Below, in pieces: positions 26,514 to 56,707 of a stretch of DNA of 64,000 nucleotides (its first letter is position 1; each line of letters opens with the position of its first letter). Source of the DNA: a virus; the UHGV virus genome UHGV-0253196; one strand, given 5' to 3'. Position numbers and translations under genes: made by a program. The notes under the pieces were generated by a model that saw only the letters and a list, made by a program, of their open reading frames with translations, had not been told where the DNA came from and searched no databases.

Positions 26514-26540
26514 GCCCGGTCTAACCCACCGGGTTTTTGT
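26514..26540 (+). terminator. rho-independent terminator ending the late/lysis operon
   Basis: CCCGGT-ctaaccc-ACCGGG followed by TTTTT, preceded by an (AT)n tract. Confidence 0.65.
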
Positions 26541-26570
26541 TTGCAATAAAATTGATTCAGTGTTACACTA
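26541..26570 (+). promoter_or_regulatory. putative sigma-A-type promoter (TTGCAA-18-TACACT)
   Basis: Hexamers read in the sequence about 30 nt upstream of the helicase start. Confidence 0.35.
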
Positions 26571-26599
26571 TATCCAAAACTAAAACGAGAGGTGACGAA

Positions 26600-29248
26600 G
26601 TGTTAAAAGTAAAACCCGTAGGAAAAGAAAGACACCTATATTTATCAGAGTGCGCGACATTAACAAACCCCACCAAGAAAGAAGTAAAATCAATTAAATC
26701 GGCAACCACCTTTACGAATCCAGCATATGAGCGGGCAAAGAAATATACTCATTACACGTCCTATAAGATTCCCCAAACACTATGCTTTAGTAGTGTAGGT
26801 TATTTTAGAGGTGTTCCAGCTATCAGATTCCCTATAGGTCTTAGATTTGAGGTATCAGAAGACAGACCGATACATAAGGTCATAGACTACAGGGTGTTTG
26901 AAAAACCAAAACATAGACCGCCAGAGTTTAAATTAACTTTGCGGGAAGACCAAGAAAGAGCGTTGCTACAGTACGTGAGTATAAACGCATGGCAAGAAAA
27001 ACAGCCTTGTGGTCTTGTACAGTTGCCGACCGGGAAAGGAAAGACTATATTATCTTTAGCGATAGTGAATGAGTTTAAGTTAAAGACGTTAGTCATAGTG
27101 CACACCAATGGTCTTGTTAAAGCCTGGACTGACGATATAAAGAAAGCCTTTGATGGTAAAGTTGTGCCGGGTCTTATAAAAGCTAAAAGCAAGACTGTAG
27201 GGGACTATATAACCATAGCAACCATACAGACGCTTAATAACATACCAGAGGACGAATTAGAGACCTTATTTGATACCTTTGGGCTTATTATACAGGACGA
27301 GTGCTTGGTTGGTGATACCTTAATCACCATGCAAGACGGTTCATATAAACCCATTAGAGACATTAGAAACGGGGATAAAGTTGCTGTAGGCGGCACCGTT
27401 AGTAATGTGTTTAGTAGGAAGTCTGAGATATATGAATTAGTATGCAGACATTCCACTATAAAAGGTAGTCCTACACACAAGACATGGTGTGTTAAAAAGA
27501 AAAACGATAAACACAATTACTATAGTAAGGAAGACCTTGTACAACTTCCGCTAAAAGACATAACCACGGACTATTTAATACCTGTTAGAGTAGAAGAACC
27601 AATAAAGAAACCTAACACTTTAGGCAGTAATTTATGTGCTTTTATCGCACTCATAATCTGTAGTGGACACCTAGATAAAAAAAGTAATCGGGTTGTTGTA
27701 AATGTATCAAAAAACACTGACTTCTATAGAAGTGTATTTGAAGAAGGGTGTAAGTGTTTTGGTGTTACTGCAAGTACCAGTTATGATTGCCGAGGAAACT
27801 TAAGAATGTGGACAAACAACATAGATATAAGATATTTTCTTGAAACCACTATGAATATAAACAAAGGTAAAAAGAACAATGTTGTTAGTGTCCCACGCTG
27901 GATACTTAATGCGTCAAACACAGAGGTTAAATCCTTTATAGAAACGTGTTTTAACTGTAGCGGTGATTTACAGGAAAACAAAGCAATGCACTTTAACTGC
28001 GCGTCACAATCGTTTTCTATGGGACTTGTGTTATTACTTAAAAGGTTTGGTGTATTAAGCACTATTCACTGTGTTAATAAACGTAAAGGTGTTAAAATTC
28101 AATACCGTGTTACTGTAGGAGGTAAGAACTTTAATAAGTTTATGGACACATTTAATCTGCTGTCATATAAAATGACCGATAGCAGAAATACAGGTAAACG
28201 CACGTTCAATAACAGATATGCGGGTAACTACTTTCTTAGTGATGTAGTGAGTTGTAAGTCTTTAGGTTACACAGAGGACGTATATGATTTCACTGTGAGT
28301 AAAGATAACCATAGTTTTATAGCAAATGGCGTTCTAACTCATAATTGCCATCACTGCCCTAGTACAAGCTATGAGTTAGTGAATAGATTCAGAGCCACCT
28401 ATAGATTAGGTCTCACAGCAACACCAGAAAGAAATGACGGTCTCACATTCTTAATGACTTTATATTTTGGCGGGTTCTGTTATGAGTACAACAAAGAGTT
28501 ACAGAAAGACCAGAAGAAAGACAAAGACATTTTACCCTTTGAGGTGATACACCGGGCCATGAAATATTCCTTTACGCCTATGTTACGTCCAGTGGGACAA
28601 AGAGGGTATAAAGTATTGCCATTTGACTATCCCGTGAATAAATATGGCCCGGAAGATATACCTATTGATTCTATACCTTATAGAGACAGACCGAAAGTAA
28701 AGTACAACGAGGTATCAGACCTTGTGATGTTAGATGAAAATAATATCAAACAGGTGTTACATGATGTGTATACAGAAGGTGTTATTAATAACCGTAGTTG
28801 TGTGGTGTTCTTTACCAGTCGTGTGCACTGTGAACACTATTTCCAGAAGTTCAAAGAAATGGTGACACGCACCACTAGGTATACGTCTGGGAATACAAAG
28901 TTTAGTAATATAGCACAGTTATACACAGGTGCCACAAAAGATGATGAAACGTGTTTAAAACGTGCAATAGACCGAGAAGTGATAGTTACCTTCACCACCT
29001 TTGGTAAGAGCACAGAGGGGACTAATATACCGTGTTTAGAAGTAGCGTTTTTAGTTACGTCTATTAATGACGGTAAAAACACCGAACAGGCCGTAGGACG
29101 TATTCGCCGCAAATGTGACACCTACCAGAAATTAGGGCGCGTAAGAGTGTATGACTATGACTATAACAAAGTGTATATGTTGAGGTCTCACTACAGAACA
29201 CGACTTGAAAGATATAAGACCTTGAAAGGTAAAATCATTGATGTATAA
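26600..29248 (+). CDS. SF2 DNA helicase (ResIII/DEAH-like) precursor containing an intein
   Basis: GAGAGGTG RBS and GTG start. Motif I QLPTGKGKT. Motif II IIQDE|CHH is split by a 348-aa insert. Motif III LGLTATPER. Motif VI QAVGRIRR. Confidence 0.75.
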   Translation: MLKVKPVGKERHLYLSECATLTNPTKKEVKSIKSATTFTNPAYERAKKYTHYTSYKIPQTLCFSSVGYFRGVPAIRFPIGLRFEVSEDRPIHKVIDYRVFEKPKHRPPEFKLTLREDQERALLQYVSINAWQEKQPCGLVQLPTGKGKTILSLAIVNEFKLKTLVIVHTNGLVKAWTDDIKKAFDGKVVPGLIKAKSKTVGDYITIATIQTLNNIPEDELETLFDTFGLIIQDECLVGDTLITMQDGSYKPIRDIRNGDKVAVGGTVSNVFSRKSEIYELVCRHSTIKGSPTHKTWCVKKKNDKHNYYSKEDLVQLPLKDITTDYLIPVRVEEPIKKPNTLGSNLCAFIALIICSGHLDKKSNRVVVNVSKNTDFYRSVFEEGCKCFGVTASTSYDCRGNLRMWTNNIDIRYFLETTMNINKGKKNNVVSVPRWILNASNTEVKSFIETCFNCSGDLQENKAMHFNCASQSFSMGLVLLLKRFGVLSTIHCVNKRKGVKIQYRVTVGGKNFNKFMDTFNLLSYKMTDSRNTGKRTFNNRYAGNYFLSDVVSCKSLGYTEDVYDFTVSKDNHSFIANGVLTHNCHHCPSTSYELVNRFRATYRLGLTATPERNDGLTFLMTLYFGGFCYEYNKELQKDQKKDKDILPFEVIHRAMKYSFTPMLRPVGQRGYKVLPFDYPVNKYGPEDIPIDSIPYRDRPKVKYNEVSDLVMLDENNIKQVLHDVYTEGVINNRSCVVFFTSRVHCEHYFQKFKEMVTRTTRYTSGNTKFSNIAQLYTGATKDDETCLKRAIDREVIVTFTTFGKSTEGTNIPCLEVAFLVTSINDGKNTEQAVGRIRRKCDTYQKLGRVRVYDYDYNKVYMLRSHYRTRLERYKTLKGKIIDV
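27302..28345 (+). mobile_element. intein (Hint domain + homing-endonuclease-like insert) within helicase motif II
   Basis: Starts CLVGDTLITM (block A) and has GSPTHKTW (block B). Ends DVYDFTVSKDNHSFIANGVLTHN followed by a +1 Cys. The middle carries two degenerate LAGLIDADG-like motifs (LCAFIALIICSGHL, SFIETCFNCSGDL). Confidence 0.65.
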
Positions 29249-47371: not shown

Positions 47372-47848
47372 TTGCCAAAGTTAAAGATTAACAGTAAGGG
47401 TGCAGAGAACAAAGAAAAAGTGCACAGAGAAGCCCAGAGAAGGGGAAAGAGAAACAAAGTCAAAGGTGGTGAGTATGAACGCAAAGTTGCTGAAATACTC
47501 AAAGGTATGTTAGGTGTTGAGTTTGTGAGAACACCGCAGAGCGGAGGGTTTGCAAAGAAATCGGACGCAAACACCAAAGACTTTAGAGGTGACATTATAC
47601 CGCTTGACGCAGACGTTGAGACGGTCTTGCATATAGAGTGCAAGAACTATAAGAACTGGGCCATGCCAAAGTGGGTAGCACAGGCTGAGAGTGATTGTCC
47701 CAAAGGTAAGATTCCTTGTATTATCTTCCACAAGTACGGAACCTCACGGGACTATATCGTGTTAGACCTCAAACACTTCTTAAAACTTATCCATATCCCG
47801 GAGGTTATCATAAAGACCGTGACAAAGAAAAGGGGTGCTAGTAAATGA
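47372..47848 (+). CDS. PD-(D/E)xK nuclease, Hjc/RecU-like, copy 2
   Basis: GEYERKVAEILKGMLGVEFVRTPQSGG...GDIIPLDADVETVLHIECK follows the same pattern as the 44624 protein. TTG start after AAAGGAG. The start is uncertain. Confidence 0.4.
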   Translation: MPKLKINSKGAENKEKVHREAQRRGKRNKVKGGEYERKVAEILKGMLGVEFVRTPQSGGFAKKSDANTKDFRGDIIPLDADVETVLHIECKNYKNWAMPKWVAQAESDCPKGKIPCIIFHKYGTSRDYIVLDLKHFLKLIHIPEVIIKTVTKKRGASK

Positions 47849-48219
47849 TGGTGTTGTTAAATGTAAGCTGGGCTATTGTAGCGTGTGTGATTGCGCGATA
47901 CCTTTACAAACACCCAATTTTAAGAATACATGGTCGTTCAATGTACCCCACATACAAAGATGGTGATGTTGTGCTGGGCTTAAGATACAACTACAAACAC
48001 TGTGACATAAGACAAGGTTCTGTAGTTGTAGTGAATAGTCCGAATGGTGTTAAAGCCATAAAGAGAGCCACAGCGTTTAAGTACAAAGAAGGTATTATGT
48101 ATGTGTGGGTTGAGGGTGATAACCCCAGTGAAAGTTATGACAGCAGAAACTACGGGTGGTTGACTACAAAAGACATTGTAGCGATTGACCCTAAACCAAG
48201 AGTAAAGGAGAAAGTATAA
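47845..48219 (+). CDS. type I signal peptidase (S26 family, minimal 124 aa form)
   Basis: N-terminal transmembrane segment. Box B GRSMYPTYKDGD (Ser), box D AIKRATA (Lys), box E GDNPSESYDSRNYG. ATGA overlap with the upstream gene. Confidence 0.55.
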   Translation: MMVLLNVSWAIVACVIARYLYKHPILRIHGRSMYPTYKDGDVVLGLRYNYKHCDIRQGSVVVVNSPNGVKAIKRATAFKYKEGIMYVWVEGDNPSESYDSRNYGWLTTKDIVAIDPKPRVKEKV

Positions 48220-48221
48220 CC

Positions 48222-48521
48222 ATGGGTAAGACAGAAAACACCAACACCGAAGGAGTTACCATTGTCCATGTTTCCTCAGACACCAACGTGCAGAAGTTGG
48301 CAGGTAGTCTTTTAACTGCCATTGAAAATAGCACCGCTGTAGAGGTGAGAGCGATTGGTGCCGGGGCAGTGAACCAGATGTATAAAGCTATCGCAAGTGC
48401 GAGAGGTTATGTTGCGCGTAAAGGACGTGACCTGTATATAAGACCCGGCTTTGATGAAGTCATTGAAGAAGGTTCTGAAAAGACAAAGACCGTCATGGTC
48501 GCAAGACTTATTGTGATGTAA
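48222..48521 (+). CDS. spoVS: SpoVS-like protein (stage V sporulation protein S homologue)
   Basis: AAAGGAG RBS. AIGAGAVNQMYKAIASARGYVARKGRDLYIRPGF...G.E.T aligns with the B. subtilis SpoVS core (AIGAGALNQAVKAVAIARGFVAPSGVDLICIPAF). Confidence 0.75.
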   Translation: MGKTENTNTEGVTIVHVSSDTNVQKLAGSLLTAIENSTAVEVRAIGAGAVNQMYKAIASARGYVARKGRDLYIRPGFDEVIEEGSEKTKTVMVARLIVM

Positions 48522-48752: not shown

Positions 48753-49139
48753 ATGAAAACGAGTATTACAAAAATGTTCACCTTTGAAGCGGCACACAGA
48801 TTACCTAACTATGTAGGTGCGTGCGCTAATCTTCACGGTCATTCTTATAAACTTGCCGTGACTGTCACCACAGATAAGCCTTTAAATAAAGACCGCAACG
48901 CAACGGGTATGATAATGGATTTTAAAGTCCTCAAAGACATTGTGAACCGAAAGGTTGTCGGCCCGTTAGACCATTCACTGTTAAATGACTTTTACTACAA
49001 CCCCACCGCCGAGATTATGGTAGAAGACTTTGCCGCGAATATACAGGCAGGACTTGATGATTTTGATGAAAGTGTGTACGTTTCAAACATTAAGTTGTGG
49101 GAGACCGAAGACAGCTATGCAGAGTGGTCGAGAGACTAG
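48753..49139 (+). CDS. queD: 6-carboxy-5,6,7,8-tetrahydropterin synthase QueD
   Basis: FEAAHRLPNY...CANLHGHSYKL (T-fold fingerprint with CxxxHGH). 128 aa. Confidence 0.7.
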   Translation: MKTSITKMFTFEAAHRLPNYVGACANLHGHSYKLAVTVTTDKPLNKDRNATGMIMDFKVLKDIVNRKVVGPLDHSLLNDFYYNPTAEIMVEDFAANIQAGLDDFDESVYVSNIKLWETEDSYAEWSRD

Positions 49140-49156
49140 AGAAAGAGGTGTTGTAT

Positions 49157-49798
49157 ATGATGTTCTATCATGAGATATTTTTATCTATACAGGGTGAATC
49201 CAGTGACGCAGGACGCCCTTGTATATTTGTAAGAATGTACGGCTGTCCGATTGGGTGTTCATATTGCGACCAGCCCCAGGAAAAGAGTGACAGAAAGCGT
49301 ATTGGTGTTGACACCATGTTATCAAAGATATACGCATTGAAGTGTAAGAACGTGTGCTTCACAGGTGGAGAACCTATGATTTACGCGCAGGAACTTATAC
49401 CCGTGTTTATCGAACTTACCGACCGGGGCTACACCGTGTCCGTAGAGACCAGCGGGTGTGTAGAGTTAGAGTCTTACCCCGTGAGAAGGTCATTTAAGTA
49501 CGTGATGGATATTAAATGCCCCAGTAGTGAGGTGTCAGAGAAGAACATTTACAGAAACCTTGCGTACTTACAGCCACATGACGAGGTGAAGTTTGTCGTG
49601 GCAGACGAGAAGGACTACCAATTTGCCCGTAACGTGTTAAAGCGTTATAATACCAGTGCGCAAATTTTATTTAGTCCCATGTTTGACACAGACGGCAAAG
49701 CAGTGATAGGACAAGAACTTGTGAACTGGATTTTGAGAGACAAGCTGTTTAATGCCCGGGTTCAGATTCAGTTACACAAAATTCTGTCAGTGAGGTAA
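49157..49798 (+). CDS. queE: 7-carboxy-7-deazaguanine synthase QueE (radical SAM)
   Basis: AAGAGGTG RBS. LSIQGESSDAGRPCIFVRMYGCPIGCSYCD is the QueE N-terminal cluster motif. Confidence 0.7.
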   Translation: MMFYHEIFLSIQGESSDAGRPCIFVRMYGCPIGCSYCDQPQEKSDRKRIGVDTMLSKIYALKCKNVCFTGGEPMIYAQELIPVFIELTDRGYTVSVETSGCVELESYPVRRSFKYVMDIKCPSSEVSEKNIYRNLAYLQPHDEVKFVVADEKDYQFARNVLKRYNTSAQILFSPMFDTDGKAVIGQELVNWILRDKLFNARVQIQLHKILSVR

Positions 49799-49802
49799 AC
49801 AC

Positions 49803-50525
49803 ATGATTGGAAAACGTAACCCAGAAAAAGACCAAGACTATTACAATGGTCTGATTGAGAGTATATGGTATAATCTAGTAGAGGTTAAATCAGAACTTAC
49901 AGGTATTAAAGAGGAAGTAAACAAAGACCATCCATTTAAAGAAGACCCAGGACACCTTAGTGCTGAAAGATTACCCGTAAAGAAAAATACTATTAGGGAG
50001 CACTTAAAGGAGGGTTATCTTCCTAAAAGACCCGTTAAGGTGTTCAGTAACCGGGACGAAGCATATGATTGTTTATACTACTGGTTAGAGAAGTTATATC
50101 TTACCGATTGGGCCATAAAACTTAAATTCGTGCGGATAAATGAAGAACCACTTAATGACGAACAGTCTGGCGACGTACGCAGAGTATTTGAGCAGAAAGC
50201 GGCGATAATCACCCTTCCATTGCCAGACGATAACTTTCTTGACGCTTGCAAAAGCAGTGTTGCGAGAGTGGGCCACGAACAGTCTTTGGTGCATGAGTTA
50301 TTGCACTTAAAGGAAGACCCTGTACAGTTTGTAGAAGATGGTGATTATACCGCCGGGTTCTATAACATACACAAACACAATGAAGTTGAAATGATGGCAA
50401 GAACACTGTTAATGGTGAAGTACAACTTATCGCCGTCTTACTTCAATAACGTAGACAGAAAGGAGAACGACAATGGCTTGTGGCACAAAGAAACCGAAGA
50501 CACCGAAGAAACCCAAAAAGAATAA
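49803..50525 (+). CDS. hypothetical protein with HExxH motif (VHELLHL)
   Basis: GAGGT RBS. 240 aa embedded in the deazaguanine cluster. Function unknown. Confidence 0.4.
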   Translation: MIGKRNPEKDQDYYNGLIESIWYNLVEVKSELTGIKEEVNKDHPFKEDPGHLSAERLPVKKNTIREHLKEGYLPKRPVKVFSNRDEAYDCLYYWLEKLYLTDWAIKLKFVRINEEPLNDEQSGDVRRVFEQKAAIITLPLPDDNFLDACKSSVARVGHEQSLVHELLHLKEDPVQFVEDGDYTAGFYNIHKHNEVEMMARTLLMVKYNLSPSYFNNVDRKENDNGLWHKETEDTEETQKE

Positions 50526-50541
50526 GAAGTAGGACAACCGA

Positions 50542-50571
50542 AGACCTGTGCTAATAAAGACAGGTCTTTTC
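50542..50571 (+). terminator. rho-independent terminator / attenuator inside the Que cluster
   Basis: AGACCTGT-gctaataaag-ACAGGTCT followed by TTTT. Confidence 0.5.
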
Positions 50572-50591
50572 GTATGAAAGGAATACATGAC

Positions 50592-50900
50592 ATGGGACAG
50601 ATATCAAAATTAGCTGAAAATGCGTATGAAACCGCAGTTGCGCACGGTTGGTATGACACACCAGTTTCGTTTGGTGAGGAAGTTGTGTTGTGTCACAGTG
50701 AGTTATCCGAAGCACTACAGGAGTTTAGAGTAGGAGGGTTTGGAACACGTAAAGACAAGATAACTGAGGAACTAGCAGACACAGTTATAAGGATTTTTAC
50801 TCTAAGTTCAAGACACCAGCTTGACATTGAAGCGGCAATATTAAAGAAGATGGAAAAGAACAAAGACAGACCATACAGACATGGAGGAAAGTTACTATGA
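50592..50900 (+). CDS. MazG-like nucleoside triphosphate pyrophosphohydrolase
   Basis: Small all-alpha protein with an EExxE-like motif LCHSELSEALQE...ELADTVIRIF. Confidence 0.5.
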   Translation: MGQISKLAENAYETAVAHGWYDTPVSFGEEVVLCHSELSEALQEFRVGGFGTRKDKITEELADTVIRIFTLSSRHQLDIEAAILKKMEKNKDRPYRHGGKLL

Positions 50901-52612
50901 GTAAACCAGTTGTAGTATTAAATAGTGGAGGTTTTGACAGCACCGTATTGTTACATTATGTAAAAGAGGTTGAAGAAGACAGTCTTGTATACTCACTGTT
51001 TTTTGAATACGGTCAGCGTTCCATGGAACAAGAAAGACGCTGTGCGCGTAAAAACTCTGTAGACCTTGACGCGCAGTATATAGGTGTCAGTCTTCCAAAG
51101 ATATACTGGACTGGCAGTGACTTCTATAATGAGGGAGGGTTTAAGGTAGACAAGCAGTATCTTGAAATGAGAAATTTAATTTTTCTGTCATATGCTCTTT
51201 CCTTTGCAGAGAGTGTAGGTGCAGAAAAGGTTTATCTTGCAGTGCTGAAATCACACCACGGGTATCCAGACACATCACCTAGATTTATTAGTGCTATGAA
51301 TGAGGTATCGAATATAATAGGTGTTAGTATTGAAGCACCATTTATAGAGAGTGACAAATACAACCTTGTTGGTCTTGCTTACAAGTACGGCATTACTGAA
51401 AACGACTTTCACAGTTGTGATAAACCTACTACAGACGGGAAACCGTGTGGCGTGTGTGATGATTGTGAGGTAGTAAAAGAAATCATGTCCCAGTTAGAGT
51501 TAAAACACCCACGGGACGTAAAGTTTAGTCCAAGAGGAACACATGAACAGTATGAGACCGTCTATAAAGAGTACCCGGTGAGTGAGTTAAGATTCACCAT
51601 AAATAACAGGTGCCAGTTTAGTTGCGCTCATTGTTACTACGGATATGAGACTTCACACCGGGAAGACCTATCAGAGAAGGAACTTACTGAATTTGCTATC
51701 AGACTTCACAAGCAGTTTGGGTTTAAGAGTATTCACTATTGCGGCAAAGAACCTATGATTGATAGCGCGATATTTGATTCCATAAGGACACTTAGGAAGG
51801 TGTTACCCGTTGACATTGAATACAGTGTTGTAACAAACGGCTTAACTGTGACTGAATACTATGAGCAGTTAGTGAATGAAAGGTTGTTAGACAAGGTGTT
51901 CCTGTCCGTTGATGATATTGAGACAGTGACGGATAAAGAACAGAAGTTACGAAACACCAGTAGGCATATATTAAATGCTATAGACTTCCTGGTTACGAAT
52001 AAAGTTCCGTTACAAGTGTTTATTGACCTTCACAAAGGTAACTACAACTACATCAATGAAATGTTGTATCAGTTAGTGAAGTTAGGTGTTAGAGAGTTTT
52101 TCGTCCGGGCAATAATGCCAATAGGTAACGCCGAAGACCTTGAACCTCTGTCCATAGCAGAGATAGCGGAAGTGTACAGTAAACTTAAGAGGTTGACAAA
52201 CTATTACCACACCACCGTTAAAGACTTTAAAGTACTTCTTACTTTAGGTAAAGACGTTATAGTCCGTATGCAGGAGCGTGACATTGACGATATGACAAAA
52301 GACGAGGAAGACTTAATAGAAATGGTTGCAAAGTCTTTAGAGTATAACACAGACGTTGTTGTGCCGGGAATGAGTATATACCCGGAGGAAGTTTGCACAC
52401 AGTTTCTTGATACTCTTACCCTTACATCAGACGGGTATGTGTTAGGCTGTACTTCCGCTGTAAGCTGTAGTGAGTACTGGAAACACAGCGCGTTTGATAT
52501 AAATACACCAGACGAGGACTTCAAGAATCGTTTGATTGAAGCAAGAAGTAAGGTGTTAGAGTATGACGGTGAAAATTGTCCATTTTCTTGTCCCAAAAGT
52601 ATTGACATTTAA
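50897..52612 (+). CDS. queC: QueC (7-cyano-7-deazaguanine synthase) fused to a C-terminal radical SAM / SPASM-like domain
   Basis: N-terminal PP-loop VVVLNSGGFDSTVLL and zinc site CGVCDDCEVV (QueC). Then FTINNRCQFSCAHCYY (CxxxCxxC), CGKEPM, VVTNG, and a C-terminal Cys-rich tail (CTQ...C...C...CPFSC). 571 aa versus about 220 aa for stand-alone QueC. Confidence 0.7.
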   Translation: MSKPVVVLNSGGFDSTVLLHYVKEVEEDSLVYSLFFEYGQRSMEQERRCARKNSVDLDAQYIGVSLPKIYWTGSDFYNEGGFKVDKQYLEMRNLIFLSYALSFAESVGAEKVYLAVLKSHHGYPDTSPRFISAMNEVSNIIGVSIEAPFIESDKYNLVGLAYKYGITENDFHSCDKPTTDGKPCGVCDDCEVVKEIMSQLELKHPRDVKFSPRGTHEQYETVYKEYPVSELRFTINNRCQFSCAHCYYGYETSHREDLSEKELTEFAIRLHKQFGFKSIHYCGKEPMIDSAIFDSIRTLRKVLPVDIEYSVVTNGLTVTEYYEQLVNERLLDKVFLSVDDIETVTDKEQKLRNTSRHILNAIDFLVTNKVPLQVFIDLHKGNYNYINEMLYQLVKLGVREFFVRAIMPIGNAEDLEPLSIAEIAEVYSKLKRLTNYYHTTVKDFKVLLTLGKDVIVRMQERDIDDMTKDEEDLIEMVAKSLEYNTDVVVPGMSIYPEEVCTQFLDTLTLTSDGYVLGCTSAVSCSEYWKHSAFDINTPDEDFKNRLIEARSKVLEYDGENCPFSCPKSIDI

Positions 52613-52718
52613 TACTCATGGTGTATAATTGTATTCAGAGATTTAGGAATGGCGTAGGTCTTCCGTATTTACCTACAGCCTAGTCCCTTGCTCACAATAC
52701 GATAAGGAGGTAAACACC

Positions 52719-52895
52719 ATGATGAATGTTTACGCAGAATCCCCCAAAGGTGGCGGGCGTGCCGCTGGTGGTAATGCACAGCAGACTGCACCCGCACCGA
52801 CCAGAGGTGGAGTAAGAGCCACACTGGGTAGAGCGGCTACAGGTGCAAGAAACGCGCTGAACAGGATTATTCGTCCCAGAGGACGTAACCGTTAA
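52719..52895 (+). CDS. small Arg/Gly/Ala-rich peptide (58 aa)
   Basis: AAGGAGG RBS 8 nt upstream. Highly basic and disordered (GGGRAAGG...RGGVRATLGRAATGARNALNRIIRPRGRNR). Confidence 0.35.
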   Translation: MMNVYAESPKGGGRAAGGNAQQTAPAPTRGGVRATLGRAATGARNALNRIIRPRGRNR

Positions 52896-52997
52896 TCAGT
52901 CCCGCACCAAGAAAGAGAGAAGTCCTAATAAACTGGGACTTCTTTTCTTTTACCCGGATTTATGTTATACTGTCTTAAAAAGAAAGGAGACAACACA

Positions 52998-53252
52998 ATG
53001 TATATTGAATCACCAAGAGACAAAGAAGGAGTTAGAGACTGGGAAGCAGAAGAAGACGCACAGGCTTTATTAAAAGCCCGCCAAATTAACTCAGACCCCG
53101 TGAGAAAAGCGAAAGCACAGGCGGTTATAAGGAGTACCCAGGCCACGTTACAAGGTGCGTTGACTGGGACACCTCCTGTAAACACACCGAGTTCAAGAAA
53201 TAACCCCGCCACTATCGGACAGTTAAACATTCCCGGCAGAAACAAAAGATAA
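52998..53252 (+). CDS. hypothetical protein
   Basis: AAAGGAG RBS. 84 aa. Confidence 0.4.
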   Translation: MYIESPRDKEGVRDWEAEEDAQALLKARQINSDPVRKAKAQAVIRSTQATLQGALTGTPPVNTPSSRNNPATIGQLNIPGRNKR

Positions 53253-53307
53253 CACCAGAACACCACAAACACATTATATACTTACAGAAGACAGAAAGGA
53301 ATCGCGC

Positions 53308-53859
53308 ATGAACGATAAATACAATTTGAGTTCAAAAGAGCAGGAGATAGCCAGCCATATAAAAGGTATAATGAGTTTGCTAGGTATTGAGGAAACACCA
53401 TCAAACATAGACACCCCAAAGCGGATAGCGAAAATGTATAGCCGCGAAGTGTTTAGCAGTGAAGGTAAAGACCTAGCCGAACTTGACGCACAAATGACTA
53501 CTTTCATTAACACGGATTTAAGTTCAATGCCCGTGACAATGACCGGGATTAAGTTTAGTTCCATGTGTGCACACCACTGGCTACCATTTTTCGGTGAAGT
53601 AGAGATAAGCTACACACCGTTTACCAAAGTGATTGGGTTGTCAAAACTGCCGCGAGTTGTGAAGTGGTTCAGTAAAAAGCCACAGACCCAGGAAGAAATG
53701 ACGAAAGAGATAGGGAACTACTTAGCAGTGTTCCTTAATCCCCGTAAACTGTCCGTGAAGGTAACAGCATTGCATACTTGCGTAGCGTGTAGGGGAATTG
53801 AGAGCGTAGGGACAGAGACCATAACTGAATACAGATATAACAGAGGGGAAGACGCTTAA
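53308..53859 (+). CDS. folE: GTP cyclohydrolase I FolE
   Basis: AAAGGAA RBS. SMCAHHWLPFFGEVEISY matches the FolE active-site motif CEHHLVPF. Confidence 0.75.
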   Translation: MNDKYNLSSKEQEIASHIKGIMSLLGIEETPSNIDTPKRIAKMYSREVFSSEGKDLAELDAQMTTFINTDLSSMPVTMTGIKFSSMCAHHWLPFFGEVEISYTPFTKVIGLSKLPRVVKWFSKKPQTQEEMTKEIGNYLAVFLNPRKLSVKVTALHTCVACRGIESVGTETITEYRYNRGEDA

Positions 53860-53875
53860 CGGCGTCTTTTCTTTT
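53849..53875 (+). terminator. rho-independent terminator
   Basis: AAGACGC-ttaacg-GCGTCTT followed by TTCTTTTG. Confidence 0.5.
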
Positions 53876-53923
53876 GCGCGCAATATGATATAATAAGTAC
53901 ATAACTTATGAAAGAGGTGAACC

Positions 53924-54505
53924 ATGAAGGTAGCAATATTTAATGGCAGTTCAAGACAGCATAGTAACAGTGAACTAATCTCAGGTGAATTAAGACGTAT
54001 ATTTGAGCGTCTAGGGTATGACACCGTAGTGCTCAATGCAAGTGACATGACAGGCTGTAGACCATGTAATCAATGTGGATTCTGTAGTTCAGTAGGTAGC
54101 TGTATATATGAAAGAGATACTCTGGGACAACACCATATTAAATGTATATGGGCTAGTGACATATGGGTGATTGTAACACCTGTGTATTGCTTTTCCATGT
54201 CCCCGCCGACCTTGACGTTACTGTCCCGGTTTTATTCTTATGGCCCAGAAGTGTTGCAAGATAAAGTTGTGTCTTCTGTGATAGTAAGTGGCAGTAGCGG
54301 TAGATATGGTGGAAAGAGCCTTGTAAATGAATCCTTTAAGCGATACTTTGAATATACAGGTGCTAACTATACAAACAAGCCCATAGGTATCACTACAAAC
54401 GACACCGTGTTAGAAGACCTGCATACACTTACACCACGGTTAAGACTATTTTGTAAAGACTTGATAAGGAGAGCGAAAAATGCTGAAAATAGTACCAAGG
54501 ACTAA
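53924..54505 (+). CDS. iron-sulfur flavoprotein (Isf / NADPH-dependent FMN reductase-like) with compact Cys cluster
   Basis: Flavodoxin-like N-terminus MKVAIFNGSSRQHSNSEL. CRPCNQCGFCSSVGSC = C-x2-C-x2-C-x2-C-x5-C. Confidence 0.5.
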   Translation: MKVAIFNGSSRQHSNSELISGELRRIFERLGYDTVVLNASDMTGCRPCNQCGFCSSVGSCIYERDTLGQHHIKCIWASDIWVIVTPVYCFSMSPPTLTLLSRFYSYGPEVLQDKVVSSVIVSGSSGRYGGKSLVNESFKRYFEYTGANYTNKPIGITTNDTVLEDLHTLTPRLRLFCKDLIRRAKNAENSTKD

Positions 54506-56648
54506 AAAGAAACCCGTACCAAAGAAAAAGGTTCCACCAAAAAAGAAGACCACCACGCCCGTAGAGATAGACGAGACCCCGGAAGTAGAGGAAGAACCAA
54601 AAAAGAACTATAGTTCTCTGCATGATGTAATGGACACTAACAGACCTTTTAAGTTAGTGTTTTCTGGCGTTGAGAATGAAAGCTACTATGACATACTTTT
54701 TGATTGCGGCGTGCGTAGCTTTCTAATGTCCTATCACTATATCCAGAGCAAGCACATTAAAATGCGTGATAGGTTTGATGGGACGGGTGTTAAACTGTTT
54801 ATTGATAGTGGCGCGCATACATACCAGAATGACCCTAAATATCTGGAACTTCCGTTAGAGTATTGGGAGAAGCACTTGCAGAAGTACCTTAACTGGGTTG
54901 AGCGGAATAGAAAGTATATATTTGCCATAGCAAGTTTTGACTTTGAGAACATTGTAGGTGCAGACACAGTAGATAGGTGGAACCGAGAATACTTAGAACC
55001 GTTCATGTTGCGCACAGGTATACCAGTGTGTTTCGTGTGGCACCAAAATTCAAAGTATGACTGGGAGTTCTATTGCAAGCGTTATCCCTATGTGGGATTT
55101 TCGTCTGTCAATACAGAAGGTGAAGCCATAGAACTATCAGAGTATAAACAAAGACTGAAAGTGGCAGAGAAGAACGAAGCACTTGTACACGGGTTCGGTA
55201 TGACGCGTACAGGTATGTTGACTGAACTTCCCTTCTACACCTCAGATAGTACGACATGGCTTGTGGGTTTGCAGTATGGGGAAATGAACTACTGGAATGG
55301 CACCAAAATGAACCGCCTTAAGAAAGACAAGTGGAAATCACCTGCTGTACTATCAGAGTTTGAGAGAAGGTATAACTCAGACCAAACACTGTTAGAGCAG
55401 GAAGACATAACCGAGGTGATAAAAGTCAATGTGTTTGCTTTCCTTGACGCAGAGGATTATATCGTCACCAAGCTACGTTCTCAAATGTACTGGTTAAAAG
55501 CAAAGACAACTAAACGGGACGTGAATAACTTACCGCCAGACTTCTTTCCAGACCCTGACATGGTGATGGTGTGTTTAGACGAAGGTGATAAAAGTGTAGT
55601 GTCATATGCTCAGAAATTTAATATCAACCCGGAATATGCTGACGCTGACTTTTTAGTGTGTTGTGCTACATTGTTCCTTAACTGGGATAACTCAATATAC
55701 AGTGACTGTAAGGACATACTCATTGAGGACGAAGCAGTGATTAAATCCCTCCATGACACACTGATAAACAGGATAGTCCCAGGTGTTGATGAAATGGTCG
55801 AAGACCTAACGCAGTTATTCAAAGAGTGCATAAGCGGCGAGAATGACAAGCTATTACAGATAGGCACCAACTTTGACCGCGCACAGAAAGAGCGTGAACA
55901 CTATATAGAGGAAGAAGACGAGTATGAGGAAGTAGAAGTATCAGAAGGTGAGATAAGGGCCGCTGTGTATAACAACATTCCTAAAGACCGTCTTCTTACC
56001 GCAGGTGAAGATTCCGCGCCAGAGATTACGGAACTTGACGCAGAAATATTTAACGGCACAGGTATAACACCACGTTTTGATGATAGAGGTAAATTCCTTA
56101 AAGGTGTTAGACAAGTAAAGAAACCAAAGTCCGTGTACAGTAAGAAGTTCCCTAAACTGGCGTGTGCTACGTGTTTCGCGGCAAGTACGTGTCCAGAATA
56201 CAAAGACGGCTATGTGTGTGCTTATAATAAGCTGTTCAGCAACTATGACACACGTAACATGGGTGACATTGTAGAAGCTATGCAATCCATGGCAAGTGTG
56301 AACATGGGCCGCCTACAGAAAGCAATGCTGTTTGAGACACTAGGTGGTGCATTAGACCCACAGGTATCACAGCTTATTAATCAGAACGTCACTTTGCTGA
56401 ACAACCTTAAGTCAATGTATGAGAACACCAACGCAATGGTGCTTAAACAGACCCGCAATATAAGACAGGACGGAAGTGTAGAAGAATCTGTGCAAGTAAC
56501 CAATCCTCAGAGCATGGGTATTATGGAACAGTTACTATCAAAGATAATGCCTAGTAGTGATAAAGAAGACGAGGTTATAGTTGAATCAGAGGACGTAACA
56601 CCCAAAAAGAAAAGCAGTGCATATGCAGACCTGGAAGAAGACGATTAA
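54480..56648 (+). CDS. candidate DpdA-like DNA-guanine transglycosylase (TGT fold) with basic N-terminal linker and large C-terminal extension
   Basis: KLFIDSGAHTYQ resembles the TGT ILTDSGGFQ motif. IFAIASFDFEN resembles MMAFDEC. Downstream Cys cluster CATCFAASTCPEYKDGYVC. Co-located with preQ0 synthesis genes. Confidence 0.5.
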   Translation: MLKIVPRTKKKPVPKKKVPPKKKTTTPVEIDETPEVEEEPKKNYSSLHDVMDTNRPFKLVFSGVENESYYDILFDCGVRSFLMSYHYIQSKHIKMRDRFDGTGVKLFIDSGAHTYQNDPKYLELPLEYWEKHLQKYLNWVERNRKYIFAIASFDFENIVGADTVDRWNREYLEPFMLRTGIPVCFVWHQNSKYDWEFYCKRYPYVGFSSVNTEGEAIELSEYKQRLKVAEKNEALVHGFGMTRTGMLTELPFYTSDSTTWLVGLQYGEMNYWNGTKMNRLKKDKWKSPAVLSEFERRYNSDQTLLEQEDITEVIKVNVFAFLDAEDYIVTKLRSQMYWLKAKTTKRDVNNLPPDFFPDPDMVMVCLDEGDKSVVSYAQKFNINPEYADADFLVCCATLFLNWDNSIYSDCKDILIEDEAVIKSLHDTLINRIVPGVDEMVEDLTQLFKECISGENDKLLQIGTNFDRAQKEREHYIEEEDEYEEVEVSEGEIRAAVYNNIPKDRLLTAGEDSAPEITELDAEIFNGTGITPRFDDRGKFLKGVRQVKKPKSVYSKKFPKLACATCFAASTCPEYKDGYVCAYNKLFSNYDTRNMGDIVEAMQSMASVNMGRLQKAMLFETLGGALDPQVSQLINQNVTLLNNLKSMYENTNAMVLKQTRNIRQDGSVEESVQVTNPQSMGIMEQLLSKIMPSSDKEDEVIVESEDVTPKKKSSAYADLEEDD

Positions 56649-56679: not shown

Positions 56680-56707
56680 TTGACAGTTTCCTTATTAAAG
56701 CTATAAT
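56680..56707 (+). promoter_or_regulatory. consensus sigma-A promoter TTGACA-16-TATAAT
   Basis: Both consensus hexamers read in the sequence. Confidence 0.55.

Follow-up and report, generated by a model that had tools for sequence, protein, structure and literature searches.

The 64,000-nucleotide stretch of the virus genome UHGV-0253196 analysed here (the window) carries on its plus strand, at positions 50897–52612, a gene for a 571-amino acid (aa) protein in which a QueC-like domain is fused to a radical S-adenosylmethionine (SAM) enzyme. This architecture had been noticed in an earlier reading of the letters without database searches (the sequence-only reading), and the Pfam search proposed there confirmed it. 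PF06508 (QueC) matched aa 5–193 with E = 1.9e-33 (116 bits against a cut-off of 22) and PF04055 (Radical_SAM) matched aa 235–381 with E = 9e-14 (52.4 bits against a cut-off of 29.5), both above the gathering thresholds. GGAGG was found 9 nt 5' of the ATG start codon, and this start overlaps the stop codon of an upstream MazG-like open reading frame (ORF) as ATGA. The protein is identical to UniProt A0A8S5QS09 ('Myoviridae sp. ctgXL3'), which is annotated as 7-cyano-7-deazaguanine synthase only.

The N-terminal part of the protein (aa 1–215; 50897–51541, plus strand) is a QueC-like PP-loop ATPase domain with an SGGFDS loop and a zinc site of C174, C184, C187 and C190. It is followed by a radical SAM core (approximately aa 226–485; 51572–52351, plus strand) with the cluster motif C239-x3-C243-x2-C246 and the motifs GKEP, VVTNG and LSVD. 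The C-terminus is formed by a twitch-type auxiliary-cluster domain (approximately aa 486–571; 52352–52609, plus strand) with the beta-hairpin C500-x12-G513-x4-C518 and C561. Residue conservation was read from an alignment of 116 full-length fusion homologues. Invariant were the PP-loop residues S10, G11, G12, D14 and S15, the four zinc cysteines, the radical SAM cluster cysteines C239, C243 and C246, residues G283, E285 and P286 of GKEP (K284 was present in 98% of the homologues), and N314 of VVTNG. GKEP aligned with the GGEP SAM motif of MoaA. The motifs CQFSCAHC, CGKEPM and VVTNG, picked out in the sequence-only reading, are real and mostly invariant. The cysteine cluster reminiscent of SPASM/twitch domains, also described there, stood for C500, C518 and C561, which are exactly the three invariant cysteines of the C-terminus (G513 is invariant as well), but not for C522 and C565, which vary among the homologues. 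The segment C500–C518 has the form of a CX9-15GX4C beta-hairpin, with which SPASM and twitch domains open. The window protein has neither the seven cysteines, including CX2CX5CX3C, of SPASM domains with two clusters nor a match to PF13186. Since three cysteines are invariant and the fourth is variable, the domain is probably twitch-like with a single auxiliary cluster.

Structure prediction, also suggested earlier, gave an AlphaFold2 model with a mean pLDDT (predicted local distance difference test) of 94.3 and a pTM (predicted template modelling score) of 0.90, confident through the linker. In the auxiliary-cluster region, the model shows a hairpin (E506-509/E514-516) and then helices. Judging by the pTM value, the protein would consist of two well-folded domains in a fixed mutual arrangement. 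Both halves are acidic (median pI of approximately 5; net charges of −9 and −12), and the net charge of the whole protein is approximately −21.

The C-terminal half has the features of the radical SAM superfamily: the CxxxCxxC motif, a GGE-type SAM motif, a score above the Pfam threshold, and a partial TIM-barrel fold. Its best solved relative by sequence profile was MoaA (E = 2e-17), and the twitch region aligned weakly with the auxiliary-cluster hairpin of MoaA. Assignment to a characterised family was rejected. Every NCBIfam radical SAM family scored far under its cut-off, including MoaA, tungsten-cofactor maturase, NirJ/AhbD, PqqE, viperin and NrdG; for MoaA, one of the best-scoring curated families, the score was 62.6 bits against a cut-off of 325. 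The possibility raised in the sequence-only reading that this half is a well-characterised radical SAM enzyme unrelated to nucleobase chemistry was, accordingly, not borne out. Five of the six aligned GTP-binding positions of MoaA (K69, R71, N124, K163 and N165) are replaced and read N/S, H280, F/L, E and F375, while the equivalent of R17 is kept as R232. The second auxiliary cysteine of the MoaA pattern (CxxC-x13-C) is absent, and the spacing of the auxiliary cysteines differs. Because the GTP-binding residues of MoaA are replaced and the NCBIfam scores are low, we regard the C-terminal half as a distinct clade outside the characterised families. No RaSEA model was present among the best 25 NCBIfam matches of the fusion, and the module around it contains no ArcS, TGT-PUA or other lysine-transfer candidate of the kind expected of a RaSEA partner, apart from DpdA. 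The close structural relatives of the radical SAM half all act on small molecules or peptides. Sequence identity within this half is approximately 31% over about 200 clusters, with all cluster ligands and SAM motifs invariant, which indicates purifying selection on the domain. In sequence, the C-terminal half lacks nothing expected of an active radical SAM enzyme, and one auxiliary cluster with three invariant cysteines is predicted in addition.

A search of 5.8 billion proteins for other QueC–radical SAM fusions, as the sequence-only reading had recommended, retrieved about 190–200 clusters at 90% identity with this architecture. All but one of the matches listed were full-length fusions (544–585 aa, 33–40% identity), and many homologues were found on phage genomes of 70–90 kb from the gut and anaerobic metagenomes. 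An exhaustive profile search gave 134 representatives at 50% identity (E ≤ 1e-30). The cluster of the window protein itself contained 63 members from independent NCBI, JGI, ENA and Logan assemblies, and the IMG/VR genome UViG_3300006487_000005 is identical to the window at the fusion locus. An assembly artefact such as a missing stop, which had been named as a possible refutation, was ruled out by the 63-member cluster and by the approximately 200 clusters with continuous architecture. The sole non-fused match among the close relatives listed, protein P0140 of locus L006, was rejected as a natural split, as it results from a frameshift inside the QueC domain and not at the domain boundary. Among GenBank phages (50,697 records), megablast found no match, and tblastn matched the QueC half only. 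In 185,579 species-representative genomes, there were three true matches, all on contigs of metagenome-assembled genomes and two of them phage-genome sized, and a cellular origin of the fusion was rejected on this basis. The fusion is common yet invisible in annotation, since every named copy is called plain "7-cyano-7-deazaguanine synthase."

The QueC half meets the broad description of the QueC family (SGGxDS, the zinc motif C(x)8-9CxxCxxC, and the Pfam threshold). It had been called a complete QueC; this was correct for the PP-loop and the zinc site but not for the family model, as the NCBIfam equivalog TIGR00364 gave 98.8 bits and did not reach its cut-off of 150.3. The canonical QueC signature includes Y35, R99, Y131 and Y189, which are essential in Escherichia coli (Libby et al., 2026; PMC13329287). 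Equivalents of the first three are present as Y38 (in YGQ), R92 (in MRN) and Y123 (in YPD), invariant or nearly so in the fusion family, and K165 of the signature is also kept. The zinc-region tyrosine (Y189) is replaced, giving C174-D175, and the position is Asn or Asp across the whole BCD7-like lineage, named after Bacillus phage BCD7. Further deviations are Ser (Ser/Asn) for the His of YxQxHxxE, LE for VP, and YPDT for YPDC; these are common to the entire lineage, plain QueCs included. Asp or Asn was read in place of the tyrosine in the window (50897–51541), in BCD7 (L005:7820-8467) and in loci L026–L037. Unlike the BCD7-like lineage, phage QueCs with known products keep both C-Y and VPxRN; these are the Rosebush type (making dPreQ0, the deoxynucleoside of 7-cyano-7-deazaguanine, preQ0), the CP220 type (making dADG, that of 7-amido-7-deazaguanine, ADG), VH7D and 9g. 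By its residues, the QueC half is a divergent, lineage-specific QueC rather than a canonical one. It is not a Gat-QueC, because the QueC match starts at residue 5 and no Gat domain was found by Pfam. QueC homologues of the RoyL type ligate 7-carboxy-7-deazaguanine (CDG) to lysine, ornithine or diaminobutyrate, and the QueC-family proteins Cap9 and QatC couple CDG to protein N-termini. Judged in its module context, the QueC half is certainly a CDG-activating enzyme of the QueC family; its reaction may end at the nitrile, the amide or another amide. The residue pattern also suggests that the base made even by the plain-QueC phages of this lineage, the isolated BCD7 included, may be other than preQ0.

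The fusion gene lies within a complete set of genes for DpdA-dependent DNA modification (48753–56648), all on the plus strand. Upstream are the genes for QueD (6-carboxytetrahydropterin synthase; 48753–49139; PF01242, E = 2.9e-29) and QueE (CDG synthase, itself a radical SAM enzyme; 49157–49798, with an alternative GTG start at 49097; PF04055 and Fer4_12). Downstream are the genes for FolE (GTP cyclohydrolase I; 53308–53859; PF01227, E = 3.4e-44), a flavodoxin-fold protein of the FMN_red family (53924–54505; PF03358, E = 7e-16) and a long DNA guanine transglycosylase of the DpdA type (54480–56648; 722 aa; phrog_887 'queuine tRNA-ribosyltransferase', E = 1e-72). QueD, QueE and FolE are kept in all related loci, and the five-function set of FolE, QueD, QueE, a QueC-family enzyme and DpdA is conserved in more than 20 of them. 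Going by the known activities of these enzymes, FolE, QueD and QueE would convert GTP to CDG, and DpdA would swap guanine in DNA for a 7-deazaguanine base. The order QueD, QueE, QueC–radical SAM, FolE, (FMN_red), DpdA was found in the window and in L001, L003, L004, L007, L008 and L015–L024, at 35–40% protein identity. The only QueC of the window module is the N-terminal half of the fusion; a second QueC or a QueF was found in none of the related fusion loci examined. The module has no conserved partner resembling a precursor peptide.

Several other genes lie in or near the module. The MazG-like pyrophosphatase gene (50574–50900, plus strand; phrog_3301, E = 2e-26, with weak Pfam MazG matches) is translationally coupled to the fusion gene through the ATGA overlap; it is accessory and absent from other loci. 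Between it and queE is an ORF of 240 aa without a family match (49803–50525, plus strand), with partial homologues in L015 and L020–L022, which is not conserved family-wide. A site with a 12/12 match to the sigma-70 consensus (TTGACA-16-TATAAT; 52602–52629, plus strand) overlaps the stop codon of the fusion gene and reads towards the genes for FolE, FMN_red and DpdA, and a second 12/12 match (56680–56707, plus strand) lies just past the dpdA stop. Both are consensus matches only, and together they point to more than one transcription unit in the module. Genes for an S24/S26 peptidase-like and an SpoVS-like protein (47845–48521, plus strand, in the window) always precede queD in L001–L037, including BCD7 (L005), which points to hosts among the Firmicutes; the two genes may form a conserved regulatory pair. 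Genes for HNH/AP2-type homing endonucleases are inserted within the deazaguanine module in L001, L017, L018 and L029 (for example, L018:12044-12721), which is consistent with frequent exchange of cassettes in the module. The phage itself is a BCD7-like myovirus with genes for tail sheath, baseplate J, DnaB, primase, PolA, RecA and an intein-bearing helicase; the gene for the last, which is of the ResIII/DEAD type (26537–29248, plus strand), is split by an intein that contains a LAGLIDADG homing-endonuclease domain.

Bacillus phage BCD7 is the nearest isolated phage. It shares with the window the gene order and flanks (S24/S26 peptidase-like, SpoVS-like, QueD, QueE, QueC, FolE and long DpdA), but its QueC is a plain protein of 215 aa, to which the QueC half of the window is 35% identical. 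Siblings with plain QueC were also found in IMG/VR (L026–L031, L036 and L037). A third type of cassette is present in L032–L035, where QueC is fused to a different C-terminal domain of approximately 240 aa (for example, L032:9998-11338; UniProt A0A8S5LXK5) with no Pfam match and no CxxxCxxC motif. This domain was considered as a possible degenerate radical SAM enzyme: Foldseek aligned the entire 446-aa protein with the model of the fusion over 522 columns, but hhalign detected no relationship (probability of 0.4%). A comparison provided by nature is that of L023, which has the fusion, and L036, which has a plain QueC. Their upstream DNA is 93–96% identical through queE, queC is essentially unalignable, folE and dpdA are 86% and 79% identical, respectively, the FMN_red gene is present in L023 and absent from L036, and identity of 93–96% resumes approximately 1 kb past dpdA. 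From this pattern, the QueC type, the FMN_red gene and the variant of DpdA are exchanged together, as a single cassette. No fusion-specific positions were found in QueE, QueD or FolE.

The radical SAM unit also occurs as a separate protein. Its closest stand-alone relative in the exhaustive search was P0179 (369 aa, E = 3e-89), which is located in the same type of module but at another position. In L045:3054-4163 and L053:265-1371, which show this arrangement, the order is FolE, radical SAM, FMN_red, DpdA, with the radical SAM gene preceded by its own Shine–Dalgarno sequence and FMN_red directly downstream of it. In L045, an IS605/TnpB element and a resolvase gene stand where queC would be expected. 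The more divergent L055:67-1023 encodes a stand-alone protein of 318 aa directly upstream of dpdA, with its own ribosome-binding site. Because siblings carry plain QueC and rare phages have a separate radical SAM gene, the unit is a modular add-on to the pathway; it folds on its own and is a genuine part of DpdA modules, where three arrangements of it are found. The more distant relatives P0224, P0259 and P0296 were dropped as pathway members, their operons being unrelated to 7-deazaguanine. Distant stand-alone SPASM relatives in L047–L049 and L052 form a conserved three-gene operon with two proteins of approximately 380 aa, which in L047 is near an MmeI-type restriction–modification gene; this operon may represent a separate system, not yet characterised. 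CP220-type phages of Campylobacter, which have dADG in their DNA, do encode radical SAM proteins of the SPASM type, but this lead was also dropped, as none of them was found within 12 kb of QueC in CP20.

The DpdA of the window is 42% identical to its homologue in BCD7, and the catalytic-core residues are invariant across 25 sequences. DpdA proteins of the BCD7-like lineage are 670–760 aa long, about twice the usual size, with a Lys-rich N-terminus and a C-terminal extension that has invariant C562, C565, C571 and C580 and a weak match to the 'terminase small subunit' PHROG. Intein-like insertions ending with VHN followed by C or T were observed in L008, in FolE (L008:11398-12942, 514 aa) at the CEHH active-site motif and in DpdA (L008:13481-16918, 1145 aa) at an invariant D-S-T-T-W motif; from this location, D-S-T-T-W is probably the catalytic centre of DpdA.

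Of 14 fusion loci, 8 have the FMN_red gene, which was not found in any of the 12 loci lacking the radical SAM unit. The protein has the motif C48-x2-C51-x2-C54-x5-C60, invariant in seven orthologues, which resembles the [4Fe-4S] site of iron–sulfur flavoproteins (Isf). It is this one motif that suggests an Isf-like protein; the solved homologues are generic flavodoxin-fold FMN reductases without the cysteine insert. Since plain-QueC phages also have QueE, QueE alone cannot explain the presence of the gene. We infer that the FMN_red protein is a candidate electron donor to the radical SAM unit.

The module as a whole is of a known kind, and the added radical SAM enzyme is new. The smallest combination, FolE, QueD, QueE, QueC plus DpdA, gives dPreQ0, and Gat-QueC in place of QueC gives dG+, the deoxynucleoside related to archaeosine, G+ (PMC6884629). 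The dPreQ0 modules of Escherichia phage CAjan and Mycobacterium phage Rosebush have the same five functions as the window; unlike these and BCD7, the window has a radical SAM/twitch extension of 350 aa on QueC and an FMN_red gene between folE and dpdA. Gat-QueC of phage 9g and archaea (dG+/G+) is similar in that a fused QueC takes the place of the plain one in a phage DpdA module, with a changed final base as the result, and in having an extra domain thought to act on the QueC product. Its extra domain, however, is an N-terminal class-II glutaminase, whereas that of the window protein is C-terminal and of the radical SAM/twitch type, with no Gat domain, and so the chemistry must differ. In ArcS–RaSEA, which makes archaeosine in Euryarchaeota, a radical SAM enzyme is likewise tied, as an obligate partner, to the enzyme of the preceding 7-deazaguanine step, downstream of preQ0. 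As the sequence-only reading had stated, QueC is not fused to RaSEA, which is a polypeptide of its own, complexed with the TGT-like ArcS, and acts on tRNA-bound preQ0-Lys. The twitch/SPASM enzymes MoaA, BtrN, BlsE, SkfB and anSME differ from the window unit, which is far below the curated cut-offs, fused to QueC and restricted to phage DpdA modules. QueC-family ligases such as Cap9, QatC and the RoyL type work in a defence or secondary-metabolite context without DpdA, whereas the window contains a complete DNA-modification pathway. The impression that the architecture had not been described holds for the literature that could be searched: neither a QueC–radical SAM fusion nor a radical SAM component of phage DpdA modules is described there, including the 2019 and 2023 (Nucleic Acids Research) surveys of phage 7-deazaguanines, the 2026 (Biochemical Journal) survey of PF06508 and a 2026 genome-mining preprint. 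A search for literature on DNA modification in BCD7 found none.

The data are best explained by the fusion being a bifunctional enzyme of the phage 7-deazaguanine DNA-modification pathway. The data show that it belongs to this pathway, that the catalytic motifs of its two halves are intact, and that the radical SAM unit is modular and linked to the FMN_red gene and to dpdA. As to its reaction, we tentatively prefer, giving it nearly an even chance, the reading in which the radical SAM half adds one radical step, carried out on the free 7-deazaguanine compound that the QueC half supplies, before insertion by DpdA, so that the base in DNA would be other than dPreQ0. The QueC half would adenylate CDG and convert it to the amide and then to the nitrile (preQ0), or to a related amide, and the product would be handed to the radical SAM active site, which in the model is rigidly attached. 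Reductive cleavage of SAM would then drive one further radical transformation of the free compound, with electrons possibly coming from the co-occurring FMN/[4Fe-4S]-type flavoprotein or from a host flavodoxin. DpdA would insert the resulting base into phage DNA, and this derivative would differ from the dPreQ0 expected in the plain-QueC siblings. Because preQ0 has no sp3 C–H to abstract, candidate derivatives may have a reduced or amidine-type 7-substituent or be products of radical addition. Radical chemistry on the 7-substituent, as suggested in the sequence-only reading, would thus be one possible form of the step.

Several observations speak for this extra step on the free base. The recurrence of the radical SAM unit in three gene arrangements makes it a component of the pathway and not a passenger, as does the restriction of the FMN_red gene to loci that have the unit. 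The pair L023/L036 looks as one would predict if cassettes for a 'modification type' were exchanged between phages. With both halves acidic, a small molecule is a more fitting substrate than DNA. The fusion would join consecutive steps, and it is accompanied by a co-diverged DpdA and a putative dedicated reductant. Gat-QueC is the precedent for a replacement of QueC that changes the final base. Other observations weigh against it. A changed base would be expected to reshape the DpdA pocket, but no column of the conserved DpdA core separates fusion (12) from plain-QueC (13) sequences, and the same was true of the QueC-domain columns (129 and 13 sequences, respectively). A promiscuous DpdA would remove this expectation, and the DpdA2 of VH7D was shown to be promiscuous. 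On chemical reasoning, ADG and preQ0 offer no sp3 C–H to the 5'-deoxyadenosyl radical. The association with FMN_red is not universal; with independent lineages as the unit of counting, it holds in approximately 6 of 12 against 0 of 4 and is no more than suggestive. Finally, the QueC half lacks the zinc-region tyrosine that is essential in E. coli and present in every phage QueC with a known product, which makes its own product uncertain.

The lack of fusion-specific positions in DpdA and QueC would also fit the insertion of the same base in both kinds of phages, with the radical SAM half modifying dPreQ0 in DNA after the QueC half has made preQ0 and DpdA has inserted it. In the split form, the radical SAM gene adjoins dpdA and not queC; RaSEA, complexed with the enzyme of the step before, has as its substrate a base bound in a polynucleotide; and the conversion by Gat-QueC could precede or follow insertion (PMC6884629). 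Such tailoring after insertion is nevertheless unlikely in our estimation, as the fusion is strongly acidic and has no recognisable nucleic-acid-binding domain, its close structural relatives act on small molecules or peptides, and it would be more natural to fuse consecutive steps than to attach the unit to an enzyme of the free base from which a transglycosylase step separates it. The unchanged positions are also in line with an unchanged or nearly unchanged product, preQ0 or G+, if the role of the radical SAM half were to process a donor of nitrogen, used in the QueC reaction or in forming an amidine. This could proceed through a RaSEA-like radical dealkylation of an amino-acid adduct of CDG or preQ0, or through radical deamination of an amine releasing ammonia, comparable to the glutaminase of Gat-QueC. 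QueC-family enzymes do use amines beyond ammonia (the RoyL type, Cap9 and QatC), RaSEA strips the lysine skeleton from preQ0-Lys by radical chemistry, and an adduct would provide the sp3 C–H absent from the free bases. However, the adduct is hypothetical, a changed nucleophile would be expected to alter the QueC pocket while the fused and plain QueC domains are indistinguishable, and the repeated exchange of cassettes between near-identical phages looks more like diversification of DNA marks in an arms race than like metabolic convenience; delivery of nitrogen seems quite improbable to us.

The closest solved relatives, peptide maturases and MoaA, the more distant stand-alone relatives in unrelated operons, and the loss or exchange of the domain in siblings without other visible changes could point to a substrate outside the pathway (a protein, a peptide, or a nucleotide such as GTP, as in MoaA), with the fusion serving co-expression, or to a decaying remnant. 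Invariant cluster ligands and SAM motifs over about 200 clusters, the constant presence of the unit in DpdA modules in three arrangements, the replaced GTP-binding positions and the missing precursor-peptide-like partner make this very unlikely. The probability that two genes were joined by a lost stop or a chimeric contig is practically negligible: the frameshift in L006 shows that such assembly errors occur, but no other support was found, its break is inside the QueC domain, the identical 571-aa protein comes from independent assemblies, the architecture is continuous in about 200 clusters, and the AlphaFold2 model is confident through the linker.

Within the preferred reading of an extra radical step on the free base, a more specific proposal can be made, although we consider it doubtful. 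The twitch radical SAM unit, with a dedicated Fe–S flavoprotein as reductant, might make a derivative unseen in any nucleic acid by a new type of radical SAM reaction on a substrate without sp3 C–H, such as a reduction or an addition at either the nitrile or C8. The three-cysteine cluster would bind the base in the way that the cluster of MoaA binds guanine.

Eight 7-deazaguanine derivatives are known in phage DNA, and each was found through an extra enzyme beside the core preQ0 genes, for example, Gat-QueC, QueF, DpdM, DpdN or DpdL. The radical SAM unit is another such extra enzyme, of a chemically far more powerful class. The near-identical pair L023/L036 and the isolated phage BCD7 make the question of its role directly testable. 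Should it make a known base, G+ or preQ1 (a further known base of this group), by radical chemistry, a known step would have a new, non-homologous solution. Should the base be new, the unit would widen natural DNA chemistry, add a new radical SAM reaction, and extend the means by which phages counter restriction enzymes, CRISPR and the defence glycosylases described recently; widespread phages of the gut and of anaerobes would then carry a new DNA base.

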